Shown one piece after another: positions 4,208 through 60,595 of a DNA stretch of 64,000 nt (position 1 is the first letter of the stretch; each line of letters starts with the position of its first letter). The stretch is from an uncultured Acidimicrobiales bacterium. Lineage in GTDB: Bacteria; Actinomycetota; Acidimicrobiia; Acidimicrobiales; CAVXTF01. The notes below the pieces were generated by a model that did not search any database, was not told the DNA's origin, and saw only the letters and a program-made list of their open reading frames with translations. Location: NCBI GenBank assembly GCA_963764615.1, contig CAVXTF010000002.1:2016351-2080350 (forward strand), written 5' to 3'. Position numbers and translations under genes: made by a program.

Positions 4208-4546
4208 TCATGCCGAGTCGGTGGCGGTCGATGTAAGTCGCTTCCGTAACCGTCCCAAGTCGGATGCTTTCGCCCCGATTTTCCGGCGTGAGTCGGTACA
4301 CAAAGCGTCCACCGAGACGAACGTGAGGAGGAGTCCGCCGATCCCCAACACCGCGGCAGTAGTCAGAAAGAAGGCGAGCAACACACCTAGACCCATCGCA
4401 AAACAGACGACTGACGGCCAGACACGACACTGGGCGCTAAGCACGGGGATCTCCGAGGGAACTCGCTCGGAAAAGAGCGGGTCGTCGCGGTAGAACGCCT
4501 TCTCCAGCTCTTCAAATGCTCGTTGCTCTTGCTCGGAGAGCGGCAC
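4208..4546 (-). CDS. DUF3040 domain-containing membrane protein
   Basis: MPLSEQEQRAFEELEKAFYRDDPLFSERV.. is followed by two hydrophobic helices, which is the typical DUF3040 layout. Confidence 0.8.
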   Translation of the reverse strand: MPLSEQEQRAFEELEKAFYRDDPLFSERVPSEIPVLSAQCRVWPSVVCFAMGLGVLLAFFLTTAAVLGIGGLLLTFVSVDALCTDSRRKIGAKASDLGRLRKRLTSTATDSA

Positions 4547-4848
4547 CTACGGCCCCCTTTGCAGCCACTTGGTTCGAATATCGGTACTACAACGTCACAG
4601 TACGGATCTCGATACGCCGCCTCTAGGGCCAAAGGTCACTCAATGGAAGGCTGTCTGGACAGGACCACCCCGGCATAGCCCCTGCACTGACAGGCGCGGT
4701 CAAGTGTCGGTTCGGGCTAGACCGGCCGGGCCGCAACCCCGCCTGGCCAGAGATGGCCAGTAGAGCAAGCAAGACGTGAGGCGCTGCTCGCGAAGGCGGC
4801 GCATAGCCAGCAGGCGCGACGCAGGCTTCCGTGGCAATACTGGAGGCA

Positions 4849-7404
4849 ATGGGTCACGTGTTCGTGAACGGCATCCCACATGAATTCCCGGCCCACTCCG
4901 ACCGCACCCTTTTGGGATTCTTGCGCTTCGACCTCGGACTGACGGGCGCGAAACCGGGCTGTGGCGAGGGACAGTGCGGAGCTTGCACGGTGCTCGTCGA
5001 CAACGTCCCGATGCTGGCGTGCCAAGTCCATCTCGAAGACATAGGGGGTTCTTCGATCACGACGATTGAGGGCCTGGCGACCGGGGGCAGGCTGCATCCG
5101 GTCCAACAGGCGCTCATTGTCGAACGAGCTAGTCAATGCGGGTACTGCACGCCAGGAATGGCACTACGCGCAGCAGCTCTCCTGGACACGGAGCCGGATC
5201 CCGACCACTCGCAGATTGCCTCCGCGATGGATCCGAGCCTGTGCCGATGCGGCTGCTACAAGCGCATCTTCTCTGCCGTTCGTCGGGCCGCCGAAATGCA
5301 GTACGACGAAGTGGATGCGGCGACGGCAAACCTGTCCTCGCAGGGTCAGACGGTCCTGGAAAGGCCTGGCCGGCCCTGGGACCTGTGCAAAGCCGACGAG
5401 CGGAGGTGGTTCGAGATTCTGGGCGACGGACTTGTCGCAGTTTGGCCCCCTGAGACCCCCGCGGCAGGGATGTGGCCGGCGAAGGGCGGTGCCTGGCTGC
5501 ACGTGGCGCCCTCGGGTCTCGTCACTGCCTTCAGCGGCAAGGTCGATGTCGGCCAGGACAACCGGACGGCTTTTCGCCTTCTTGTCGCAGAAGAACTCGC
5601 TGTCGCACTTGACGACGTGCAGGTGGTTCTCGGCGACACCGACCTGTGCCCTTTCGACATGGGCACGTTCGGCAGCCGCTCGATGCCGGACGCAGGCGAA
5701 ACGCTCCGCCGCGCGGCGGCGGGAGCCCGCCAGACTCTCTTGGCTCTCGCTGCAAAGCGTTTGAACATCGCGACAGAAACGTTGTCGATCCGCGGTGGCG
5801 GAGTGATCGGAGTTCGAGATGGGCCTGATCTCCGATATGGGGAGCTCGTCGAAGGCACGCAGCACCTGGAGATCCTCATGGATGAGGTTCCGCTCACCCA
5901 TCCCACGTCTTGGGCTCTTGCCGGAAGCGCTGGTCCCGCCCCCCTTCGAACGGACGTAGTGACCGGGGCTCGCCGCTTCACGTCCGATCTCGACTTACCT
6001 GGGATGCTGCACGGATCGATACTGCGTCCGCCCGTTCGCGGGGCGGTCCTCCGGTCGGCCGATCTCGCAGCGGCTGAGAAGCTCCCCGACATCGCGACGG
6101 TGAGCGAGGGCGAGTTCGTCGCAGTTGCCGCAGTGGACCCGATCGCCGCACGACAAGCCATCGCCGCGATCGACGCCGAATGGGATATGCCTCCTCCGGG
6201 AGCCGATGACCTCGTCGCTCATCTGCGATCGCACCCTGTGAACGGCGAAGGATGGCAGGGGGTTTTCGAGCACTCGATCGGGGACGTCTCCACGGCCCTC
6301 GAAGGCGCCACAACCTCTCTCACAGCCACTTACACGACCGCCTATGTCGCTCACACCCCACTCGAGACAAGGGCCGCCGTCGCGCGATGGGAAGCGAACC
6401 GCCTGACGGTGTGGACCGGCACGCAGGTCCCATTCGGTGTGCGTAACCAGATCGCCGAAGCGTTAGGGATCGACGAAACCGAGGTGAGAGTGATCGTTCC
6501 TCCGACCGGAGGTGCCTTCGGGGGTAAGCACGGGGCACAGGTCGCGATAGAAGCTGCTCGTCTGGCCAAGGCTGTCGCACGCCCCGTCAAGGTCCATTGG
6601 ACCAGGGCGGAGGAGGTCCGATGGGGTGCGGTGCGGCCCATGGCCGTCATCGACATCCGAAGCGGCCTCAATGACGTTGGTTCAATCACAGCTTGGGATT
6701 TCACAAACATCAATTCGGGTGCAGCAGGCATAGCTTGCCCCTATGACATTCCCAACCAGCGGTTGCGCTACCAGCCCGCCGAGTCTCCGTTGGCTCAATC
6801 CTCCTATCGTGCGCTGGCAGCGACGGCGAACCACTTTGCACGCGAGTCGCACATCGACGAACTCGCCTGCTGCACAGGGTTCGATCCCCTCAAGTTCCGC
6901 CTCCGACACCTGGTGGACGAACGGCTCGTCGCGGTCGTCGAAGCCGCTGCAGAGCGATTCGGCTGGCCGGGGCTGGCGCGAGCGTCGGGAATGGCCCTTG
7001 GATTGGAAAAGGGCGGTCGGGTGGCAACATGCGTCGAGGTCTGCGATACCGACGACGGCGCTGTCCGTGTCAGTCGGATCGTGACGGCCTACGAATGCGG
7101 AGCAGTCGTCAACGTCGACGCTGTATTGAATCAGATAGAGGGCGCGACGGTCATGGCCCTCGGAGGAGCTCTGTTCGAGGGACTGGACGTCGAGTGCGGC
7201 CAAATCGCAGACGCGTCCCTATCGCATTACCGGGTACCGCGCTTCTCGGACGTACCGTCCATCGAGGTGGTGCTTGTCGATCGTAGGGACATAGCGTCGG
7301 CCGGCGCAGGTGAGACGCCGATGGTCACCGTGGCTCCCGCCGTCGCAAATGCGATCTACGCAGCCACCGGACGCAGGATCAGGTCACTTCCGCTGTGCCC
7401 ATGA
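4849..7404 (+). CDS. Fused (2Fe-2S)-binding / molybdopterin-dependent oxidoreductase (xanthine dehydrogenase / IorAB-CoxSL family)
   Basis: The N-terminus has GCGEGQCGACTV and CGYCTPG..CRCGCY Fe-S motifs. The rest is an aldehyde oxidase/XDH-type Mo-binding large-subunit region. GGAGG at 4841-4845 favours the ATG at 4849 over the GTG at 4831. Confidence 0.9.
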   Translation: MGHVFVNGIPHEFPAHSDRTLLGFLRFDLGLTGAKPGCGEGQCGACTVLVDNVPMLACQVHLEDIGGSSITTIEGLATGGRLHPVQQALIVERASQCGYCTPGMALRAAALLDTEPDPDHSQIASAMDPSLCRCGCYKRIFSAVRRAAEMQYDEVDAATANLSSQGQTVLERPGRPWDLCKADERRWFEILGDGLVAVWPPETPAAGMWPAKGGAWLHVAPSGLVTAFSGKVDVGQDNRTAFRLLVAEELAVALDDVQVVLGDTDLCPFDMGTFGSRSMPDAGETLRRAAAGARQTLLALAAKRLNIATETLSIRGGGVIGVRDGPDLRYGELVEGTQHLEILMDEVPLTHPTSWALAGSAGPAPLRTDVVTGARRFTSDLDLPGMLHGSILRPPVRGAVLRSADLAAAEKLPDIATVSEGEFVAVAAVDPIAARQAIAAIDAEWDMPPPGADDLVAHLRSHPVNGEGWQGVFEHSIGDVSTALEGATTSLTATYTTAYVAHTPLETRAAVARWEANRLTVWTGTQVPFGVRNQIAEALGIDETEVRVIVPPTGGAFGGKHGAQVAIEAARLAKAVARPVKVHWTRAEEVRWGAVRPMAVIDIRSGLNDVGSITAWDFTNINSGAAGIACPYDIPNQRLRYQPAESPLAQSSYRALAATANHFARESHIDELACCTGFDPLKFRLRHLVDERLVAVVEAAAERFGWPGLARASGMALGLEKGGRVATCVEVCDTDDGAVRVSRIVTAYECGAVVNVDAVLNQIEGATVMALGGALFEGLDVECGQIADASLSHYRVPRFSDVPSIEVVLVDRRDIASAGAGETPMVTVAPAVANAIYAATGRRIRSLPLCP

Positions 7405-53957: not shown

Positions 53958-54158
53958 ATGGCAGTAGGCACGGTCAAGTTTTTCAACGCCGAGAAGGGTT
54001 ACGGCTTCGTCTCACGCGACGACGGCGAGGACGTCTTCGTCCACTACAGCAACGTCGCCGGCACGGGATTCCGTACGCTCGAAGCCGGCCAGCAGGTCGA
54101 ATTCGAAATTGCCCCGGGACGCAAGGGCGACGAGGCCCGCAACGTGAAGGTGATCTGA
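53958..54158 (+). CDS. cspA: Cold-shock protein (CspA family)
   Basis: [31 protein letters not shown] carries the RNP1/RNP2 motifs. GAGGGAGAGAG lies upstream. Confidence 0.95.
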
Positions 54159-54279
54159 GCCAGATCTACTGATCTCGTCGTCCGATCACCCGTCAAAGCC
54201 AGTCAGAGCAGTTGCAGTAACGAAAGCGTCAGGCGCGACACCCGGCTCACCGTGCCGCCTGGCTGAAAGGAGCGGCACC

Positions 54280-54540
54280 ATGGCCCGATCGTGTTCCACA
54301 TTCGGGAAGATGCAACGCGAGCAGGAGAAGCGGTCGCGCGCCAGGGCGAAGCAGGAGAAGCGCTTGGCGCGGCGCGACGAGGACCAGCCAGAAGATGGAT
54401 CGGTGACGACCGCCGAGGACCAGGCGAGCATCCTCGAGGCGTTGGCCCGACTTCACGAGGACTTGGCCGAAGGACGCATACCGCTCGAGATCTTCGAAGC
54501 GCGTCAAGAGGAGCTGCGAAGCAGCATCCGCATCGACTGA
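54280..54540 (+). CDS. Small charged protein with SHOCT-like C-terminus
   Basis: The basic N-terminus is QREQEKRSRARAKQEKRLARR. The C-terminus is ILEALARLHEDLAEGRIPLEIFEARQEEL. Confidence 0.4.
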   Translation: MARSCSTFGKMQREQEKRSRARAKQEKRLARRDEDQPEDGSVTTAEDQASILEALARLHEDLAEGRIPLEIFEARQEELRSSIRID

Positions 54541-54602
54541 AGCCACGAGAACGAGCGTCGGCGCGCCGACTCCGGCGCGGGTCTGTCCCTTAAGATTCAC
54601 AA

Positions 54603-55349
54603 GTGGACGCCGAAGAACTGGTCAGCGTCGTCTGCCCCCGGATCGGTGACCTGGGATGGGCCTTCTATTTCATCCCCGAGACCTTGAAGGTGGGAAAATC
54701 CCTCGGTCTCGACGGGCTGCGGTTCTACTTCCTGGGCCGGGGAGGCGTGCTCGGTGACGTCGACGCCGGGGTCGTTGTGAGCGCGTTCGGATACTTCGCG
54801 CCATCGCTCGTTTACAAGATGTGGAACTCAGCACGCGAGATCTGCCCGCCGCAAGACGCTGCGCACGCCTACATGAACTGTTGCGCGGACTTAGGCCGGT
54901 CACACCTGATCGGCGTGCCTGACCTTGCCGGATTCTGTGACGCAGCAGGAGCGGTTAACGATGCGGCCGACCCGGTCGGGCTGGCGTTGTATGCGGGAAT
55001 CAGGACGCAGCCGCTAGCAGAGGATCTTGCCGGGCGGGCGATGCAGCTAATAACGGTGCTGCGCGAGCTCAGAGGAAGCGCGCATCTTCTTGCGGTGCGG
55101 GCGAAAGGGCTCGACGCCAGGACCGCGCACTACCTGCACCGACCGGAGGACATGGCCATGTTCGGCTGGGGTGAGGACGACACACCCGATGTCACCGACT
55201 TCGAGCGCCGCAAGCTCCAAGCTGCTCTGTACCTCACAGACGAAATCGTCCTTCCCGCTTACTCTGTTCTTGACCAGCGCGGCCAAAAAACGCTGACCGC
55301 CGGTCTCGAAGCAATCGGCGACGCGCTTAGCCGCCTCCCGCAACGCTGA
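54603..55349 (+). CDS. Conserved hypothetical protein
   Basis: 248-aa ORF with a GTG start and unbiased composition. I cannot assign a family with confidence. Confidence 0.65.
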   Translation: MDAEELVSVVCPRIGDLGWAFYFIPETLKVGKSLGLDGLRFYFLGRGGVLGDVDAGVVVSAFGYFAPSLVYKMWNSAREICPPQDAAHAYMNCCADLGRSHLIGVPDLAGFCDAAGAVNDAADPVGLALYAGIRTQPLAEDLAGRAMQLITVLRELRGSAHLLAVRAKGLDARTAHYLHRPEDMAMFGWGEDDTPDVTDFERRKLQAALYLTDEIVLPAYSVLDQRGQKTLTAGLEAIGDALSRLPQR

Positions 55350-55351
55350 AC

Positions 55352-56008
55352 ATGTCGAAGAAGCGTCTCATGGCGGACCTAGCCGCCCTCGCGAGGATCG
55401 GACTTCTCGTCTGCTTCGTTGGGGTCGCCGCTGGCGCGTGTGACACCGGATACAAATTCTCGACATCGCAACCGGGCCCCGGATCCCAGACGCCGGTAAC
55501 GACAGGGGACGGCTCGGGTTCGACAAGCACGTCGGCGCCTGCCGCTAACGCCCCGTCGTGCCTGGCGAGGGACCTGAAGGCACGAGGGGGCCGGCGCCAG
55601 AACCCTGACGACGCCGGCGGCGCGATCGGCGATGTGATGATCTCCAACTCCTCGGGCGCCGCGTGCGAGCTGAAGGGCGCTCCGAGCCTCGAGCTCCTGA
55701 GCAGCCATGGAACCCCACTGCACGTGCAGGACGATCGGGGAGGTAGCCCGTCGCTCGCTCCGGTGATCGTCGCTGCCCGGGGTAAGAGCACTGCAGAGAT
55801 GGTCTTCACGTGGGAGAACTGGTGCGGACCCGAGCCAGGCCCGCTCGACATGGAGATCGAGCTTTCGAGCGGCGGAAAGCTCATCGCACCCCTCACTGGA
55901 GCTCTCGGGAGCTACGTTCCCACGTGCGGACGCCCTGACGCGCCCTCGGTGATCCGGGTCGAGTACGCCTACGTACCTGCCGGGTCCGCCAATCTGGCGT
56001 CAGCCTGA
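55352..56008 (+). CDS. Lipoprotein, DUF4232-like
   Basis: The signal peptide and lipobox are LLVCFVGVAAGAC. CLARDLKA..GAIGDVMISNSSGAACELKGAPSLEL is DUF4232-like. Confidence 0.7.
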   Translation: MSKKRLMADLAALARIGLLVCFVGVAAGACDTGYKFSTSQPGPGSQTPVTTGDGSGSTSTSAPAANAPSCLARDLKARGGRRQNPDDAGGAIGDVMISNSSGAACELKGAPSLELLSSHGTPLHVQDDRGGSPSLAPVIVAARGKSTAEMVFTWENWCGPEPGPLDMEIELSSGGKLIAPLTGALGSYVPTCGRPDAPSVIRVEYAYVPAGSANLASA

Positions 56009-56015
56009 CCGAGGA

Positions 56016-57545
56016 CTACCTGCGGACCGGAGCGTCCGGCAGGGGTTCGGGGGCGGGCGGCCCCGCGTAAAGCGCTGCAGGCCGGATCAGGCGATTGTCC
56101 GACGCCTGTTCGAGAACATGCGCGGACCAACCGACCGTCCTTGCTGCTGCGAAAGTGGGCGTGAACATCTCGGGGGCGATCCCGCACGCGTTCATGACCA
56201 CGCCCGCGTAGAACTCGACGTTCGTGCACAGCTCCCGCTCGGGCTTGAGCTCGGCGAGCAGCCGGATGGCTGTGGACTCGGTGTGAGCGGCGAGCTCGAA
56301 CAACGGGGCTCCGAGCGACTCCGCCACTCCGCGCAGGAACGCAGACCTGGGATCTTCGGTCCTGTAGACCCGGTGCCCGAAGCCCATGATCCTGTCCCCG
56401 CGCTCGATCGCTGTTCGCAGGTAGCCCCCGGCGCGATCGGCGGTCCGGATCTCGCTGAGCATGTCGAGTGCCCGACTCGGGGCGCCCCCATGGAGTGGGC
56501 CTGAGAGGGCCCCGATGGCACCGCACTGCGCCGCAGCGAGGTCGGCGCCTGTCGAGACGATCACGCGCGCCGCGAACGTCGAGGCGTTGAAGCCGTGATC
56601 GACGGTGAGGATCATGTACTGCTCGATAGCCCTCGCGTGAGCTACGTCGGGCTCTTTCCCGTTCAACATCCACAAATAGTTCGCTGCGTGCCCGAGGTCA
56701 TCGCGCGGACTGACGGGGTCGAGTCCCGCCCTTAGGCGAAATGTCGCCGCAAGCAGAGTCGGCACGACCGATCCGAGCTGCAGAGCCTGGGACCGCAACG
56801 TGTCGAGGTCGATGTCGTGGGTCGGCTGCCAGGAGAGCTCGGCACCGAGCAACGAGATCGAAGTGCGCAACACCTCGAGAGGGCTGCCCTTGCCTGCGAT
56901 CGCCGGCAGGATCCGCGCCACGCCGTCGGGAATCTGCCTGAGAAGCCTGACAGCGTGTGAAAACTCGTTGGACTCAGCGTCGCCGGGAAGCGAGCCTTCG
57001 AGCAGAAGTTGCCAGACGTCTTCGAACGATCGATGGGCGGCCAGGTCGATCGCCGAGTACTGCCGGTAGTGGTAGAAGCCTTCGCGCCCACGTACATCCC
57101 CGACAGCCGTCTCGGCCACCACGACGCCTTCGAGGCCGCGCGGCACCTCGATCCCGACCTCTGTTGCGGGCCTGAGACGCGCCACCCTGATCAGATCCCT
57201 GAGCGAGACGACGCCGAGCAATTCGTCACCTTCGACGACAGGAAGATGCCGGTAGTGGTGGTGCGTCAAGCTCGCCCACGCTGCTCCAGCCTCTTCGTCC
57301 GGCCCGAGAACGTCGGGCCCCGCGGTCATCCACAGACGGGTGGGCTCACGGCGGGGCTCGGCTCCCGCTGCCGCCGCCCTGAGCAGGTCGCGCTCGGTGA
57401 GGATGCCGATGACCTTCGACCTATCCGTCACCACGACAGATCCCGTAAGCGCCTCGGCCATCGTCCGGGCCGCGTCTGACAACGAAGCTTCCGCACCGCA
57501 GGTCACGGCCGGGCTCGACATCAGGTCCCTGACCAACGTCGCCAT
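56016..57545 (-). CDS. CBS-pair domain fused to citrate (or 2-methylcitrate) synthase
   Basis: The N-terminus has two CBS motifs (VRDLMSSPAVTC..VVVTDRSKVIGILTERDLL; HLPVVEGDELLGVVSLRDLI). A citrate synthase core follows: DHGFNASTF, GPLHGGA, GFGHRVYRTEDPR and NVEFYAG. Confidence 0.9.
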   Translation of the reverse strand: MATLVRDLMSSPAVTCGAEASLSDAARTMAEALTGSVVVTDRSKVIGILTERDLLRAAAAGAEPRREPTRLWMTAGPDVLGPDEEAGAAWASLTHHHYRHLPVVEGDELLGVVSLRDLIRVARLRPATEVGIEVPRGLEGVVVAETAVGDVRGREGFYHYRQYSAIDLAAHRSFEDVWQLLLEGSLPGDAESNEFSHAVRLLRQIPDGVARILPAIAGKGSPLEVLRTSISLLGAELSWQPTHDIDLDTLRSQALQLGSVVPTLLAATFRLRAGLDPVSPRDDLGHAANYLWMLNGKEPDVAHARAIEQYMILTVDHGFNASTFAARVIVSTGADLAAAQCGAIGALSGPLHGGAPSRALDMLSEIRTADRAGGYLRTAIERGDRIMGFGHRVYRTEDPRSAFLRGVAESLGAPLFELAAHTESTAIRLLAELKPERELCTNVEFYAGVVMNACGIAPEMFTPTFAAARTVGWSAHVLEQASDNRLIRPAALYAGPPAPEPLPDAPVRR

Positions 57546-57678
57546 CTGTCGAGCCCCCTTTCGTGCGAACCGGCTGTCGCCAACCTCCTCATATTGAACG
57601 CCTAGGTTTCGAATGTAAATATTGATCTAGTCAATGTGGCCTTGTTCGCTCTCAACTAGGCTCGCTGTCTTGGCGCGG

Positions 57679-58848
57679 ATGCTCGAAAGCGAAGAGGCGG
57701 CACGACGGCTCGGGATCAAACTCGCCACCCTCTACGCCTACGTGAGTAGAGGTCTGCTTCCCTCCTACCCGACCAGCGATTCCCGTAGGAGCCTGTTCGA
57801 CCTCGACGACGTCGAACGCCTCGCACGGCGATCCCGAGCCGGGCGCCGCGTGGAGACAAGACTGGCCTCTGTCACGACCGCTGTGACACAGCTGCGCGAG
57901 GACGGTCCTGCCTATCGAGGGAGGCCGGTAGCCGACCTCGCACGGACGGAGACCTTCGAGTCGGTCGCCAACCTGCTCTTCGAGGCAACCTCTGGACCGG
58001 ATCAGGGCTGGCAACCCGTGCGACTGCCCCGACCGCCCTTGATGGCAGCCTCAGGGCGTCTGTGCTGGGCGGTCATGATGTGCGGGGCCCGCGATCCGCT
58101 GCGTTCAGACCTCCGCACCGAGGCCGTCGTCAGAAACGCAAGGAAGGTCATAGCGACGGCCGTCGAGTCCCTTCGAGACTCAGTGCGACCGGCCGCTGGC
58201 ACGGAACGAGCTCACCGCCGTCCCGAAGCCATCGCACAACGGCTGGGTCAATGCCTGACCGCGCAACCTTCACCTGCGATCGTCCGGGCTATGGACACCG
58301 CCCTCGTCGTCCTCGCCGACCACGAGCTCGCCACTTCCACCATGGCGGTCCGCATCGCCGCCTCCACCCGAGCAGACGTCTACGACGGGTTGCTGGCGGG
58401 GCTCTGCACGCTCGCCGGTCCCTTGCACGGCGGTGCCAGTGAGCTTGCGCACGCTCTGTTGATGCAAGCGGAGCGCACCGGCGTCGAGCCGGCTCTCGAT
58501 TCGACGTTGCGCTGGCAGAAAGCGCTACCCGGGTTCGGCCATCCCTTGTACAGCAGAGGCGATCCGAGGTTCGACATCCTCATGTCGAGAGTCAGCGAAA
58601 TCGCCACGCCTGAGCAACGCCAGATCTTGAGCACGCTCGTCGGGCTGGCACGAGCCCATGCAGTGCCGGAACCGAACGTCGACCTCGCCCTTGCGGCCCT
58701 CACTTGGGTAACCAATGCACCCGCCGACGCGGGTCGCACGATCTTCAGTGTCGCGCGTCTCGCCGGATGGACCGCTCACTACATCGAAGAGCTGAGCGAA
58801 AGACCCCTGCGATTCAGAGCCAGGGCCGTCTACGCATCCAACCACTGA
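57679..58848 (+). CDS. HTH (excisionase/MerR-like) domain fused to citrate synthase-like domain
   Basis: The HTH is MLESEEAARRLGIKLATLYAYVSRGLLP. The citrate-synthase-like core is ADHELATST, GPLHGGAS, GFGHPLYSRGDPR, PNVDLA and ARLAGWTAH. Confidence 0.85.
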   Translation: MLESEEAARRLGIKLATLYAYVSRGLLPSYPTSDSRRSLFDLDDVERLARRSRAGRRVETRLASVTTAVTQLREDGPAYRGRPVADLARTETFESVANLLFEATSGPDQGWQPVRLPRPPLMAASGRLCWAVMMCGARDPLRSDLRTEAVVRNARKVIATAVESLRDSVRPAAGTERAHRRPEAIAQRLGQCLTAQPSPAIVRAMDTALVVLADHELATSTMAVRIAASTRADVYDGLLAGLCTLAGPLHGGASELAHALLMQAERTGVEPALDSTLRWQKALPGFGHPLYSRGDPRFDILMSRVSEIATPEQRQILSTLVGLARAHAVPEPNVDLALAALTWVTNAPADAGRTIFSVARLAGWTAHYIEELSERPLRFRARAVYASNH

Positions 58849-58896
58849 CCCCCGGGATCCCCGGCCACCTCTGAGCAGAGAAAAGGGTTTTCGGGC

Positions 58897-59346
58897 TCAG
58901 CGACAGGTTGCGCAGAGCCCGAGCACATCGAGACGGTGGCTGTGGGGCTCGAATCCTTCACTCTGCGCCAATGCATCGAGAGTCGACGCAACGTCGCGCT
59001 CGAATTCGGAGGAGGGCGTGACGTCTATGACCTTGCCGCACTCGATGCATACAAGATGATGGTGATGCTCGGTCAGATCCTCCGCGAGCTCGAAGCGTGC
59101 GAACTCGTCTCCGCCGGCCACACGGCGTACGGCACCTGCCACCTCGAGATCCACAAGATGCCGGTACGCCGAGCTGCGGGGAAGCGAGGGGAGCCGATCC
59201 GCTATGTCCCCGATGCTCACAGGACGGCCTGCACTCACGAGCATCTCGATGATCGCCCGCCGGCCGGGGGTGTACCGCTGATCGACCCGGCGGAGACGGG
59301 CCTCCACCAGGCCGTGCAGTTCATCGTCCACGTCACCGGCTGACAT
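58897..59346 (-). CDS. Fur family transcriptional regulator
   Basis: RYTPGRRAIIEML..SAYRHLVDLEVAG..HHHHLVCIECGKV..CATC is present. The start is set at MSAGDVDD. Confidence 0.85.
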   Translation of the reverse strand: MSAGDVDDELHGLVEARLRRVDQRYTPGRRAIIEMLVSAGRPVSIGDIADRLPSLPRSSAYRHLVDLEVAGAVRRVAGGDEFARFELAEDLTEHHHHLVCIECGKVIDVTPSSEFERDVASTLDALAQSEGFEPHSHRLDVLGLCATCR

Positions 59347-59462
59347 CGGGCTCCTCGCGTCCTGTGTCCTCCATTTATACAAGTCGAACTGCCTCGACTC
59401 GGCGGTGGCGGACCCTCAGGTTCCCTGTCAGAGCGCTGTCTAAGGGTATAGACTTATCGACC

Positions 59463-59669
59463 GTGACTCCGACGGTCCGTACCGAAGACCTTGCTGACGC
59501 TCAGGAGCTCGCCACCCTTCTCGGGCTTCGGCACCCGAACAGCGTCAGCACGTACCAGAGGCGCTATCCCGACATGCCGAAACCGGTTCTCGATCTCGGG
59601 CCGGGTAGACCGAAGCTCTGGCTGCGCCCTCACGTGAGCGCATGGGCAGAGGCCCGCCGCCGAAGTTGA
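59463..59669 (+). CDS. Small hypothetical protein (possible HTH)
   Basis: This is the GTG-started sub-ORF of 59364..59669 (DLADAQELATLLGLRHPNSVSTYQRRYPDMP). Its stop overlaps the map start region. Confidence 0.4.
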   Translation: MTPTVRTEDLADAQELATLLGLRHPNSVSTYQRRYPDMPKPVLDLGPGRPKLWLRPHVSAWAEARRRS

Positions 59670-60595
59670 GACAGCCGATCAGGTCCAACGCCCCCTGCTG
59701 GTGCGGAAGCGGCCGCAAGTACAAACGCTGTCACCGTGCCGAACGAGATCTCGTGCTGCCCGGCGAGATAAGCCCCCGGCGCGAGGTCCCTTCTCACATT
59801 GTGCTACCCGATTACGCGCGTGACGGCATGCCCGTCCTGCTGGACGAGCCCATGGCGAAGAGTCCCGAGACCATCGACCGGATGCGTCGAGCAGGACTGG
59901 TCGCAGCACGTGTCCTGCAGGTCACCGCGGCAGCACTCGAGCCCGGCGTGACGACCGATGCGCTCGACGCCGTCTGCCACGAAGCCACTATCGAGTTGGG
60001 GGCGTACCCGAGCCCGCTCAACTACCACGGGTTCCCGAAATCCATCTGCACTTCGGTGAACGAGGTGATCTGCCACGGCATACCGGACTCGCGCCCCGTC
60101 GCAGAAGGCGACATCGTCAACCTCGACGTGACGGTTTACCTGCAAGGAGTGCACGGCGACACGAGCGCCACTTTCGCGGTCGGTCGGACAGACGCGGAAT
60201 CCGAGCGGCTGGTGCGCGTCACGGAGGAAAGCCTGCAGCTCGGCATCGCCGCGGTTGCTCCCGGAAGGCCCGTGAGCGACATCGGGCGTGCCATCGAGCG
60301 TCATGCCGAGGGCGAGGGATACAGCGTGATCCGCGCATTCTGCGGGCACGGCATAGGTGAGGTCTTCCATTCCCGCCCGCAGATCCCCCACTACTTCGAC
60401 CCGCGTGCATCGACTGTCATCGAGCCGAACATGACGTTCACAATCGAGCCGATGATCGCGATCGGCACATGGCGCCACGCGAGCTGGGACGACGGCTGGA
60501 CCGCGGTGACAGCGGACCGGCAAAGGACTGCGCAATTCGAGCACACGATCCTGGTTACGCCCACGGGAGCAGAAGTCCTGACCCGTTGTCCCTGA
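59642..60595 (+). CDS. map: Type I methionine aminopeptidase with N-terminal SEC-C zinc motif
   Basis: The SEC-C motif is CWCGSGRKYKRCH. The metal ligands lie in DIVNLDVT, FCGHGIG and EPM..EHT. An alternative TTG start lies at 59666. Confidence 0.9.
   Translation: MGRGPPPKLRQPIRSNAPCWCGSGRKYKRCHRAERDLVLPGEISPRREVPSHIVLPDYARDGMPVLLDEPMAKSPETIDRMRRAGLVAARVLQVTAAALEPGVTTDALDAVCHEATIELGAYPSPLNYHGFPKSICTSVNEVICHGIPDSRPVAEGDIVNLDVTVYLQGVHGDTSATFAVGRTDAESERLVRVTEESLQLGIAAVAPGRPVSDIGRAIERHAEGEGYSVIRAFCGHGIGEVFHSRPQIPHYFDPRASTVIEPNMTFTIEPMIAIGTWRHASWDDGWTAVTADRQRTAQFEHTILVTPTGAEVLTRCP

Follow-up and report, generated by a model that had tools for sequence, protein, structure and literature searches.

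A citrate synthase paralogue with a winged helix-turn-helix domain as a predicted regulator of a divergent citrate synthase gene in Actinomycetota

A divergent pair of citrate synthase (CS) paralogues lies at positions 56016-58848 of the window analysed here, a 64-kb stretch of a metagenome-assembled genome (MAG) from an Acidimicrobiales bacterium. The minus-strand gene encodes a CS with an N-terminal CBS pair (CBS-CS), and the plus-strand gene encodes a diverged CS with an N-terminal helix-turn-helix (HTH) domain (HTH-CS). Both proteins are named 'citrate synthase' in databases, and no third CS gene was found in the 64-kb window. The genes, their domains and the region between them are as follows.

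56016-57545, minus strand: CBS-CS gene, 509 aa, N-terminal CBS pair and complete CitA-type citrate synthase
57156-57545, minus strand: CBS pair (Bateman module), residues 1-130 of CBS-CS, two PF00571 repeats
56019-57155, minus strand: citrate synthase core of CBS-CS, residues 131-509
57546-57678, no strand assigned: divergent intergenic control region, 133 bp
57679-58848, plus strand: HTH-CS gene, MerR/excisionase-type winged HTH, flexible linker and full-length diverged CS fold
57679-57840, plus strand: winged HTH domain, residues 1-54 of HTH-CS
57877-58845, plus strand: CS-fold sensor or catalytic domain, residues 67-389 of HTH-CS

The plus-strand open reading frame (ORF) had been listed from position 57634. 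Since the homologues of HTH-CS all open with MLESEEAARRLG, its true start is at 57679, which gives a protein of 389 aa. This protein is 100% identical to the NCBI entry 'MAG: citrate synthase [Acidimicrobiales bacterium]'.

Profile searches confirmed the two domain architectures that an initial annotation of this DNA had proposed. The CBS-CBS unit and complete CS core of the minus-strand gene correspond to two Pfam CBS matches (1.4e-23) and a Citrate_synt match covering model positions 1-357 of 357 (1.5e-111, 373 bits), and the protein passes the NCBIfam model NF009005 (PRK12350, citrate synthase) with 338.5 bits against a cut-off of 332. The excisionase/MerR-like HTH and diverged CS core of the plus-strand gene correspond to matches to HTH_17 (2.7e-7, 31.2 bits, cut-off 27) and Citrate_synt (6.4e-56, 190 bits), with weak matches to MerR and to MerR_1, the latter exactly at its cut-off (21.6 bits). 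HTH-CS scores far under all NCBIfam CS cut-offs, the best scores being 139.9 against 421.3 for TIGR01800 and 134.7 against 332 for NF009005, and the two CS folds share ~26% identity. The 133-bp spacing of the genes was also correctly given, and the peptides quoted for CBS-CS (DHGFNASTF, GPLHGGA, GFGHRVY, NVEFY) and HTH-CS (ADHELATST, GPLHGGAS, GFGHPLY, PNVDLA) are all present.

The AlphaFold2 model of HTH-CS (predicted local distance difference test (pLDDT) 84, predicted template modelling score 0.77) has an HTH joined to a complete short-type CS fold. Residues 1-54 form a helix-helix-wing-helix arrangement (helices 4-11 and 15-23, strand 38-40, helix 42-53), which is followed by a disordered 12-residue linker (residues 55-66) and directly afterwards by the CS fold. 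The best Foldseek matches of the model are Mycobacterium tuberculosis PrpC, M. tuberculosis CitA and other CS structures (template modelling score ~0.68), and a profile of the HTH alone had a sole match in the PDB, the N-terminal domain of SoxR (E = 0.005). The modelled secondary structure likewise agrees with a winged HTH of the MerR type. Three His and the substrate-binding Arg residues are retained in both proteins of the pair. HTH-CS keeps H215, H250, H288, R297, D335, R360 and R380, among them the equivalents of H238, H274, H320, R329, D375 and R401 of the pig enzyme. The statement of the initial annotation that the diverged core has the catalytic His and Asp residues and an altered neighbouring residue is accurate, as the equivalent of Asn242 is Ala in HTH-CS (DHELA versus DHGFN in CBS-CS).

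When 1.84 billion cluster representatives were searched exhaustively with HMMER, 906 50%-identity clusters fell into the HTH-CS family at E ≤ 1e-30. The best 150 matches almost all align from query residues 1-6, and these matches therefore retain the HTH. With a 17-sequence alignment as the query against one genome per GTDB species, relatives of HTH-CS were found in at least 579 species, and 80 loci of different species were taken for comparison. Most of these are from Acidimicrobiia, and the others come from Streptomyces (L067-L069), Actinoplanes, Paractinoplanes, Plantactinospora, Lentzea, Iamia and a Polyangiaceae MAG. The HTH-CS family is widespread and mis-annotated.

The proteins of the window were searched against the 80 loci by tblastn. 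A divergent CS gene at most 400 bp from HTH-CS is present in 69 of them, with a CBS pair in 48 loci and without it in 21; in five loci a CS gene lies 0.4-2.8 kb away, and in six none was found near HTH-CS. Two of the six lie at the edge of a contig, where one of them, L073, retains a CBS fragment. The reverse check gave the same picture, with four of four CBS-CS genes, picked independently of HTH-CS, adjoining a divergent Citrate_synt paralogue (three intact HTH_17 plus CS proteins and one truncated gene call). The co-occurrence and divergent synteny that the initial annotation had put forward for checking thus hold. Of the 74 paired loci, 50 have a CBS pair, and these 50 are all from Acidimicrobiia. 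Given 48 divergent pairs with a CBS pair and 21 without, the conserved unit, as judged from gene order, is a two-gene module of HTH-CS and a CitA-type CS, to which the CBS fusion was added in one clade only. The pairing proposed in the initial annotation is therefore conserved with respect to the CS, but the partner is the CS core, and the CBS pair belongs to Acidimicrobiia only. The pairing also extends beyond the lineage of the window, to Streptomyces, Actinoplanes, Lentzea and others. The genes flanking the pair in the window (Fur-family, SCO6745-family, DUF4232 and methionine aminopeptidase) recur only in the closest relative, L001.

The region between the two genes had been described as AT-rich, and its GC content is indeed 53% compared to 65% for the window, falling to 37% in the core at 57590-57640. 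The 70 paired intergenic regions (12.5 kb in total) are unalignable except for one island, which in the window contains the following elements.

57614-57637, no strand assigned: conserved operator-like island, 24 bp, TGTAAATATTGATCTAGTCAATGT, the only exact match in the window
57621-57635, no strand assigned: core dyad ATTGA-N5-TCAAT, half-site centres 10 bp apart, predicted HTH-CS dimer site
57616-57625, no strand assigned: imperfect 10-bp palindrome TAAAT/ATTGA, counterpart of TCAAYRTTGA in other lineages

The dyad ATTGA-TCTAG-TCAAT of the initial annotation is real and forms the core of the conserved island, but its position is 2 nt off the quoted 57623-57637. In 42 regions of the CBS-CS type the island reads TGTAAAcGTTGATCAAGTCAATgT, with ~2 bits at most positions and unconserved flanks, and in 13 regions of the CS type it reads TgTcAAcgTTGATc.a.TCAAtaT. 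An exact RTTGA-N5-TCAAY dyad is found in 55 of the 70 paired intergenic regions, and the remaining regions mostly have an N6 variant or the 10-bp palindrome. Eight further exact dyads occur in the 944 kb of loci, all upstream of CS or HTH-CS in split loci, and every one of the 63 exact dyads in this sequence is located upstream of a CS or HTH-CS gene. The window contains one exact copy, and when up to two mismatches were allowed one other site (47697) was found, which is at chance level (the reverse strand of the dyad itself aside). The window dyad is far beyond chance, with a single exact copy in the window and conservation in homologous loci.

TCAAYRTTGA palindromes, single or arrayed at 5-6 bp spacing, are present in Streptomyces, Actinoplanes, Ilumatobacteraceae, Lentzea and the Polyangiaceae MAG. 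Arrays of two to four palindromes occur in several lineages, for example GTCAATATTGATTCAATCAACATTGATCGATC in L068. Where the pair is split (L006, L040 and L065), the element stays with the CS gene, whereas in L049 it is found upstream of both genes, and the lone HTH-CS genes of L046, L055, L070 and L079 also have it upstream. The invariant half-site TTGA/TCAA goes together with the HTH recognition region TLYAYVSRG, nearly invariant across the 80 loci, in Acidimicrobiia, Streptomyces, Actinoplanes and Lentzea. A scan of positions 54000-60000 against Rfam revealed no riboswitch or known RNA family in the intergenic region, the only match being a chance one to HIV_PBS (E = 0.16).

Several loci show local rearrangements around the element. 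In L006 (3520-5834) and L040 (~4424-5891), a PaaK-like CoA ligase (AMP-binding_C_2) and an Amidohydro_2 protein are encoded between the operator-like element and HTH-CS. Both genes are on the same strand as HTH-CS, so that the divergent-promoter logic is preserved, and they may have been recruited into the regulated operon. L040 also has a degenerate second copy of the element just upstream of HTH-CS. Tandem repeats are present in the CS/HTH-CS intergenic regions of L050 (5737-5970, 62-bp unit, 3.8 copies, 95% matches) and L021 (15-bp unit GGGTCGTTCGGCCTC, five copies).

Residue conservation was analyzed in 133 full-length representatives of the HTH-CS family with 37-59% identity. In the HTH, no representative departs from Y19 and Y21 (133 of 133), and a single one lacks R24 (132 of 133). 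Among the substrate contacts, R297 (pig R329, an oxaloacetate contact) is kept in all 133, R360 (pig R401) in 130 and H215 (pig H238) in 128. The catalytic residues H250 (pig H274) and H288 (pig H320) are kept in 124 and 117 representatives, respectively, and the catalytic base D335 (pig D375) in 125, with Glu in four more. The catalytic triad is intact in 109 representatives and lost in 24 (18%), and in the 80 loci it is intact apart from three His-to-Gln changes. Ala takes the place of Asn242 in all 80 loci and in 115 of the 133 representatives. Across the family, the HTH and oxaloacetate-contact residues are thus under tighter constraint than the catalytic ones, which speaks for a receptor role of HTH-CS.

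The divergent partner has the features of a functional CS. The best PDB match of CBS-CS is citrate synthase 1 from Bacillus subtilis (2c6x, 1.7e-89), which likewise has the NVEFY motif, and its core also matched the M. tuberculosis CitA structures. It has His in the DH, GPLHGG and GFGH motifs, Arg in DPR and ARTVGW, and Glu in NVE. The catalytic-base motif NV(D/E) therefore has Glu in CBS-CS, as in 2c6x, and Asp in HTH-CS. In the paired CS genes, the catalytic and substrate residues (three His, Glu and Arg) are kept in 69-72 of 72, the Asn242 equivalent in 71 of 72 and Glu at the catalytic-base position in 71 of 71. In the loci L001-L080 the module is tied to one CS subfamily, with HTH-CS always having Asp at this position and its CS partner always Glu, as in B. 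subtilis CitA.

In the AlphaFold2 model of CBS-CS (mean pLDDT 81), the CS core is confident and residues 1-121 form two confident beta-alpha-beta-beta-alpha units. G-h-h-S/T-x-x-D/N motifs are the ribose-phosphate binding signatures of nucleotide-binding Bateman modules, and CBS-CS has one in each repeat, GILTERD and GVVSLRD (G-h-h-S/T-x-x-D), with 117 of 120 homologues conserving each of the two. In inosine monophosphate dehydrogenase (IMPDH) and CBS-pyrophosphatase, a Bateman module is fused to a catalytic domain and confers nucleotide-dependent allostery. CBS-CS resembles them in having canonical ribose-binding motifs on a Bateman module joined to a catalytic domain. The CBS pair gained in Acidimicrobiia probably makes the enzyme subject to allosteric control by an adenosine-containing ligand as well. 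The pair may be adenylate-sensing and the module may act at the entry to the tricarboxylic acid (TCA) cycle, as suggested in the initial annotation.

The island also contains sequences that could belong to core promoters of both genes.

57614-57619, minus strand: candidate -35 element TTTACA of the CBS-CS promoter; TGTAAA is invariant in the CBS-CS clade
57591-57596, minus strand: candidate -10 element CAATAT of the CBS-CS promoter, 17 nt from TTTACA, matching three of six consensus positions
57632-57637, plus strand: candidate -10 element of the HTH-CS promoter, CAATGT, which overlaps the right half-site; the right edge of the island has a conserved CAATRT

Read this way, the CBS-CS transcript of the window would have a leader of ~45 nt. 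The CS start codon is 36-40 bp from the dyad in 27 loci where the intergenic region is short, and the sequences there fit TTTACA, 17-18 nt, CATAGT, 6-7 nt, ATG, a geometry which suggests a leaderless CS mRNA with the -35 element as part of the island. The HTH-CS start codon most commonly lies 22-24 bp from the motif. If the promoter assignment is right, a protein on the dyad would touch both core promoters.

We consider HTH-CS likely to be a one-component regulator with a CS-fold sensor, which autoregulates its own gene and controls the neighbouring CitA-type CS gene. The initial annotation had also read HTH-CS as a metabolite-sensing DNA-binding regulator, and the comparative evidence (synteny, dyad conservation and residue pattern) supports this. 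In the proposed mechanism, the CS fold would dimerise as citrate synthases do, and the dimer would present two MerR-type winged HTHs to RTTGA-N5-TCAAY with its half-sites 10 bp apart. The dyad would sit between two back-to-back core promoters, abutting the putative -35 element of the CS gene and overlapping the putative -10 element of HTH-CS. The retained active-site pocket would bind oxaloacetate, possibly together with acetyl-CoA, or the product citrate, and the ligand would bring about the domain movement by which citrate synthases typically pass from the open to the closed state. This movement would alter HTH geometry and DNA affinity and thus set the transcription of both genes. In the version which we prefer, HTH-CS would repress both its own gene and the CS gene, and substrate would lift the repression. 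The target would be a CitA-type CS of the Glu variant, which in Acidimicrobiia also has the CBS pair, giving a two-layer module in which a carbon metabolite acts on transcription and a nucleotide acts allosterically on the enzyme. The comparison establishes the domain architectures, the synteny, the operator-like element with its association with both genes, and the pattern of residue conservation; DNA binding by HTH-CS, its effector and the sign of regulation, like the promoter elements and the ligand of the CBS pair, are predictions of this model.

A gene pair with this arrangement has already been named in Streptomyces coelicolor. SCO5831 (citA3) and SCO5832 (citA4), a divergent pair with an intergenic region bound by MtrA, were reported as 'both encoding putative citrate synthases' (PMC12323332), and SCO5831 was elsewhere termed 'citrate synthase-like' (PMC9739823). 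Like the genes of the window, they are divergent with one shared control region, and the Streptomyces loci L067-L069 have the same arrangement. The S. coelicolor site quoted in PMC12323332 is TTGACTTAACTGTCCA, and the published MtrA consensus consists of GTAACC direct repeats. L067 carries TTGACTTGACTGTCCA, which matches the S. coelicolor site in 15 of 16 positions and is located next to a palindrome. From this match and the common arrangement, SCO5831/SCO5832 are probably orthologous to the HTH-CS/CS pair. In the literature on the S. coelicolor genes both are called synthases, and the HTH, the palindromes and a regulatory role are not mentioned. The view of the initial annotation that this arrangement had not been characterised is thus right for the regulatory role, but the probable S. 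coelicolor pair had already been named as two synthases. Unlike CBS-CS of Acidimicrobiia, the Streptomyces CS partner is without a CBS pair.

Several points weigh against a regulatory function of HTH-CS. Its DNA binding is predicted solely from the co-occurrence of protein and dyad, and the Pfam HTH match is weak (31 bits against the cut-off of 27). A strict scan of positions 57400-57800 for sigma-70 promoters and terminators called neither, so that the promoter elements given above stand as candidates proposed from conservation and geometry. All catalytic residues of HTH-CS are invariant or nearly so in the Acidimicrobiaceae clade, and it is therefore possibly a plain active enzyme. The island may in part represent promoter hexamers and not an operator. 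Finally, with MtrA binding to the SCO5831/SCO5832 intergenic region (PMC12323332), the element could be that of another factor.

HTH-CS could also be a trigger enzyme, that is, an active citrate (or 2-methylcitrate) synthase which also binds DNA and whose turnover itself sets DNA affinity. We regard this as unlikely, and it and the sensor model are not mutually exclusive. In its favour, HTH-CS has the catalytic His/His/Asp and every substrate-binding Arg, the triad is intact in 82% of the family representatives, and the CS fold is full-length and confidently modelled. Against this, 18% of the representatives have lost a catalytic residue but retain the HTH and the oxaloacetate-binding Arg, the Ala in place of Asn242 is found in all 80 loci, and HTH-CS scores far under all NCBIfam CS cut-offs (134.7 bits against 332 for NF009005). 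Trigger enzymes such as PutA, BirA and NadR are proven catalysts and DNA-binding repressors in one polypeptide, with the substrate status setting their binding, whereas catalysis by HTH-CS appears to be dispensable in about a fifth of its family (~18%). It is rather improbable that the element is bound by another regulator (MtrA or a global factor), or is a mere core promoter pair, with HTH-CS binding elsewhere or not at all. A probe taken from between SCO5831 and SCO5832 of S. coelicolor is indeed shifted by MtrA (PMC12323332), and the island edges TGTAAA and CAATRT can be read as -35 and -10 hexamers. However, the element is a symmetric dyad and takes the form of palindrome arrays in several lineages. 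It also lies upstream of HTH-CS genes without an adjacent CS gene, that of the Polyangiaceae MAG among them, and neither the other ~930 kb of loci nor the rest of the window contains it. Moreover, the MtrA consensus and the site TTGACTTAACTGTCCA are a different, adjacent sequence. Their common database name and the catalytic residues kept in both proteins would also agree with two ordinary redundant citrate synthases, the HTH and CBS domains being neutral fusions or annotation artefacts. This is very improbable in view of the invariant Y19 and Y21 in divergent representatives, a fusion present in at least 579 species, the CBS ribose-binding motifs kept in 117 of 120 homologues, and family-specific active-site differences between paralogues with ~26% identity.

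The predicted regulator can be compared with several known groups of proteins, of which B. subtilis citA-citR, the MocR/GabR-type enzyme-fold regulators and the trigger enzymes are nearest to it in function. MocR/GabR regulators combine an HTH with a full aminotransferase fold as the effector-binding and dimerisation module and in many cases regulate a divergent gene that belongs to the same pathway, and ROK and RpiR/SIS proteins are other enzyme-fold regulators. HTH-CS shares with MocR/GabR the combination of an HTH and a complete enzyme fold with its ligand-contact residues kept, and its locus shares the conserved palindrome upstream of its own and the neighbouring gene. The HTH of MocR/GabR, however, is of the GntR class, whereas HTH-CS has an HTH of the MerR/HTH_17 class and a CS fold. 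Enzyme-fold transcription factors are thus already known, and the CS fold would be new among them. According to what Jin and Sonenshein reportedly found in 1994, the B. subtilis citA gene for the minor citrate synthase has a divergent regulator gene, citR. The logic is the same, a CitA-type CS with a divergently transcribed regulator, but CitR is a LysR-type protein without a CS fold and HTH-CS is a CS paralogue with a MerR-type HTH.

The winged HTH type and a palindromic operator are features that HTH-CS would have in common with the MerR family (SoxR, CueR and BmrR). It is without the long antiparallel coiled-coil helix and C-terminal effector pocket of MerR proteins, having a disordered linker followed by the CS fold, and its dyad is not inside a MerR-type 19-20-bp spacer but appears to lie between two putative divergent core promoters. 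Thus, HTH-CS is not a full member of the MerR family, with which it shares the HTH but neither the coiled coil nor the promoter-spacer operator. CitA from Caulobacter crescentus is likewise a CS paralogue with a catalysis-independent regulatory role (bioRxiv 10.1101/799742), but it acts on cell-cycle control and is without a DNA-binding domain, a divergent CS pair and an operator. No description of an HTH-CS regulator, a CS-fold sensor or a CBS-CS fusion was found in the full-text literature, in which few subscription journals were covered.

With slightly more confidence than doubt, we propose that HTH-CS is the founding member of a large family of transcription factors that has so far gone unrecognised, with at least 579 species, ~900 50%-identity clusters and a probable member in S. 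coelicolor. In this family, the CS fold would serve as the receptor and domain closure or catalysis as the switch; oxaloacetate and acetyl-CoA (or citrate) would be read at TCAAYRTTGA or RTTGA-N5-TCAAY, and a Glu-type CS would be controlled, with CBS as a second layer in Acidimicrobiia. If this is true, hundreds of 'citrate synthase' entries from Actinomycetota would become transcription factors, and metabolic reconstructions that count CS isozymes would be affected, such as those with the 'four citrate synthases' of Streptomyces. A fold from central metabolism would join the repertoire of one-component sensor domains, and CBS-CS would be a new case of Bateman-domain control of a TCA cycle enzyme. 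The operator prediction is precise, and S. coelicolor is a genetically tractable model for it. Regulation at the acetyl-CoA/oxaloacetate node bears on antibiotic production by Streptomyces, and HTH-CS is a potential natural scaffold for biosensors of oxaloacetate, acetyl-CoA or citrate.

The gene downstream of HTH-CS in the window (58897-59382, minus strand) encodes a Fur-family protein and is convergent with HTH-CS, 48 bp from its stop codon. Its neighbourhood is kept only in L001, and the gene is thus probably unrelated to the module; for the same reason, the Fur-family protein was rejected as the owner of the dyad. An excisionase or mobile-element origin of the HTH_17 domain was also rejected, with no integrase-like gene adjoining the pair in the window and the loci examined and with the fusion being vertically conserved. 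Further downstream, positions 59642-60595 (plus strand) encode a type I methionine aminopeptidase (Peptidase_M24) with an N-terminal SEC-C zinc-binding motif. On the other side, directly downstream of the 3' end of CBS-CS, are genes for an SCO6745-family HTH_67 protein (54603-55349, plus strand) and a DUF4232 protein, which is probably secreted or a lipoprotein (55352-56008, plus strand). This gene pair recurs in L001, and in L055 an SCO6745-like gene is located upstream of HTH-CS. An 86-aa ORF at 54280-54540 (plus strand) has a weak GvpG-like match (E = 7.9e-5, under the Pfam cut-off), which is probably a chance match to a charged helical protein.

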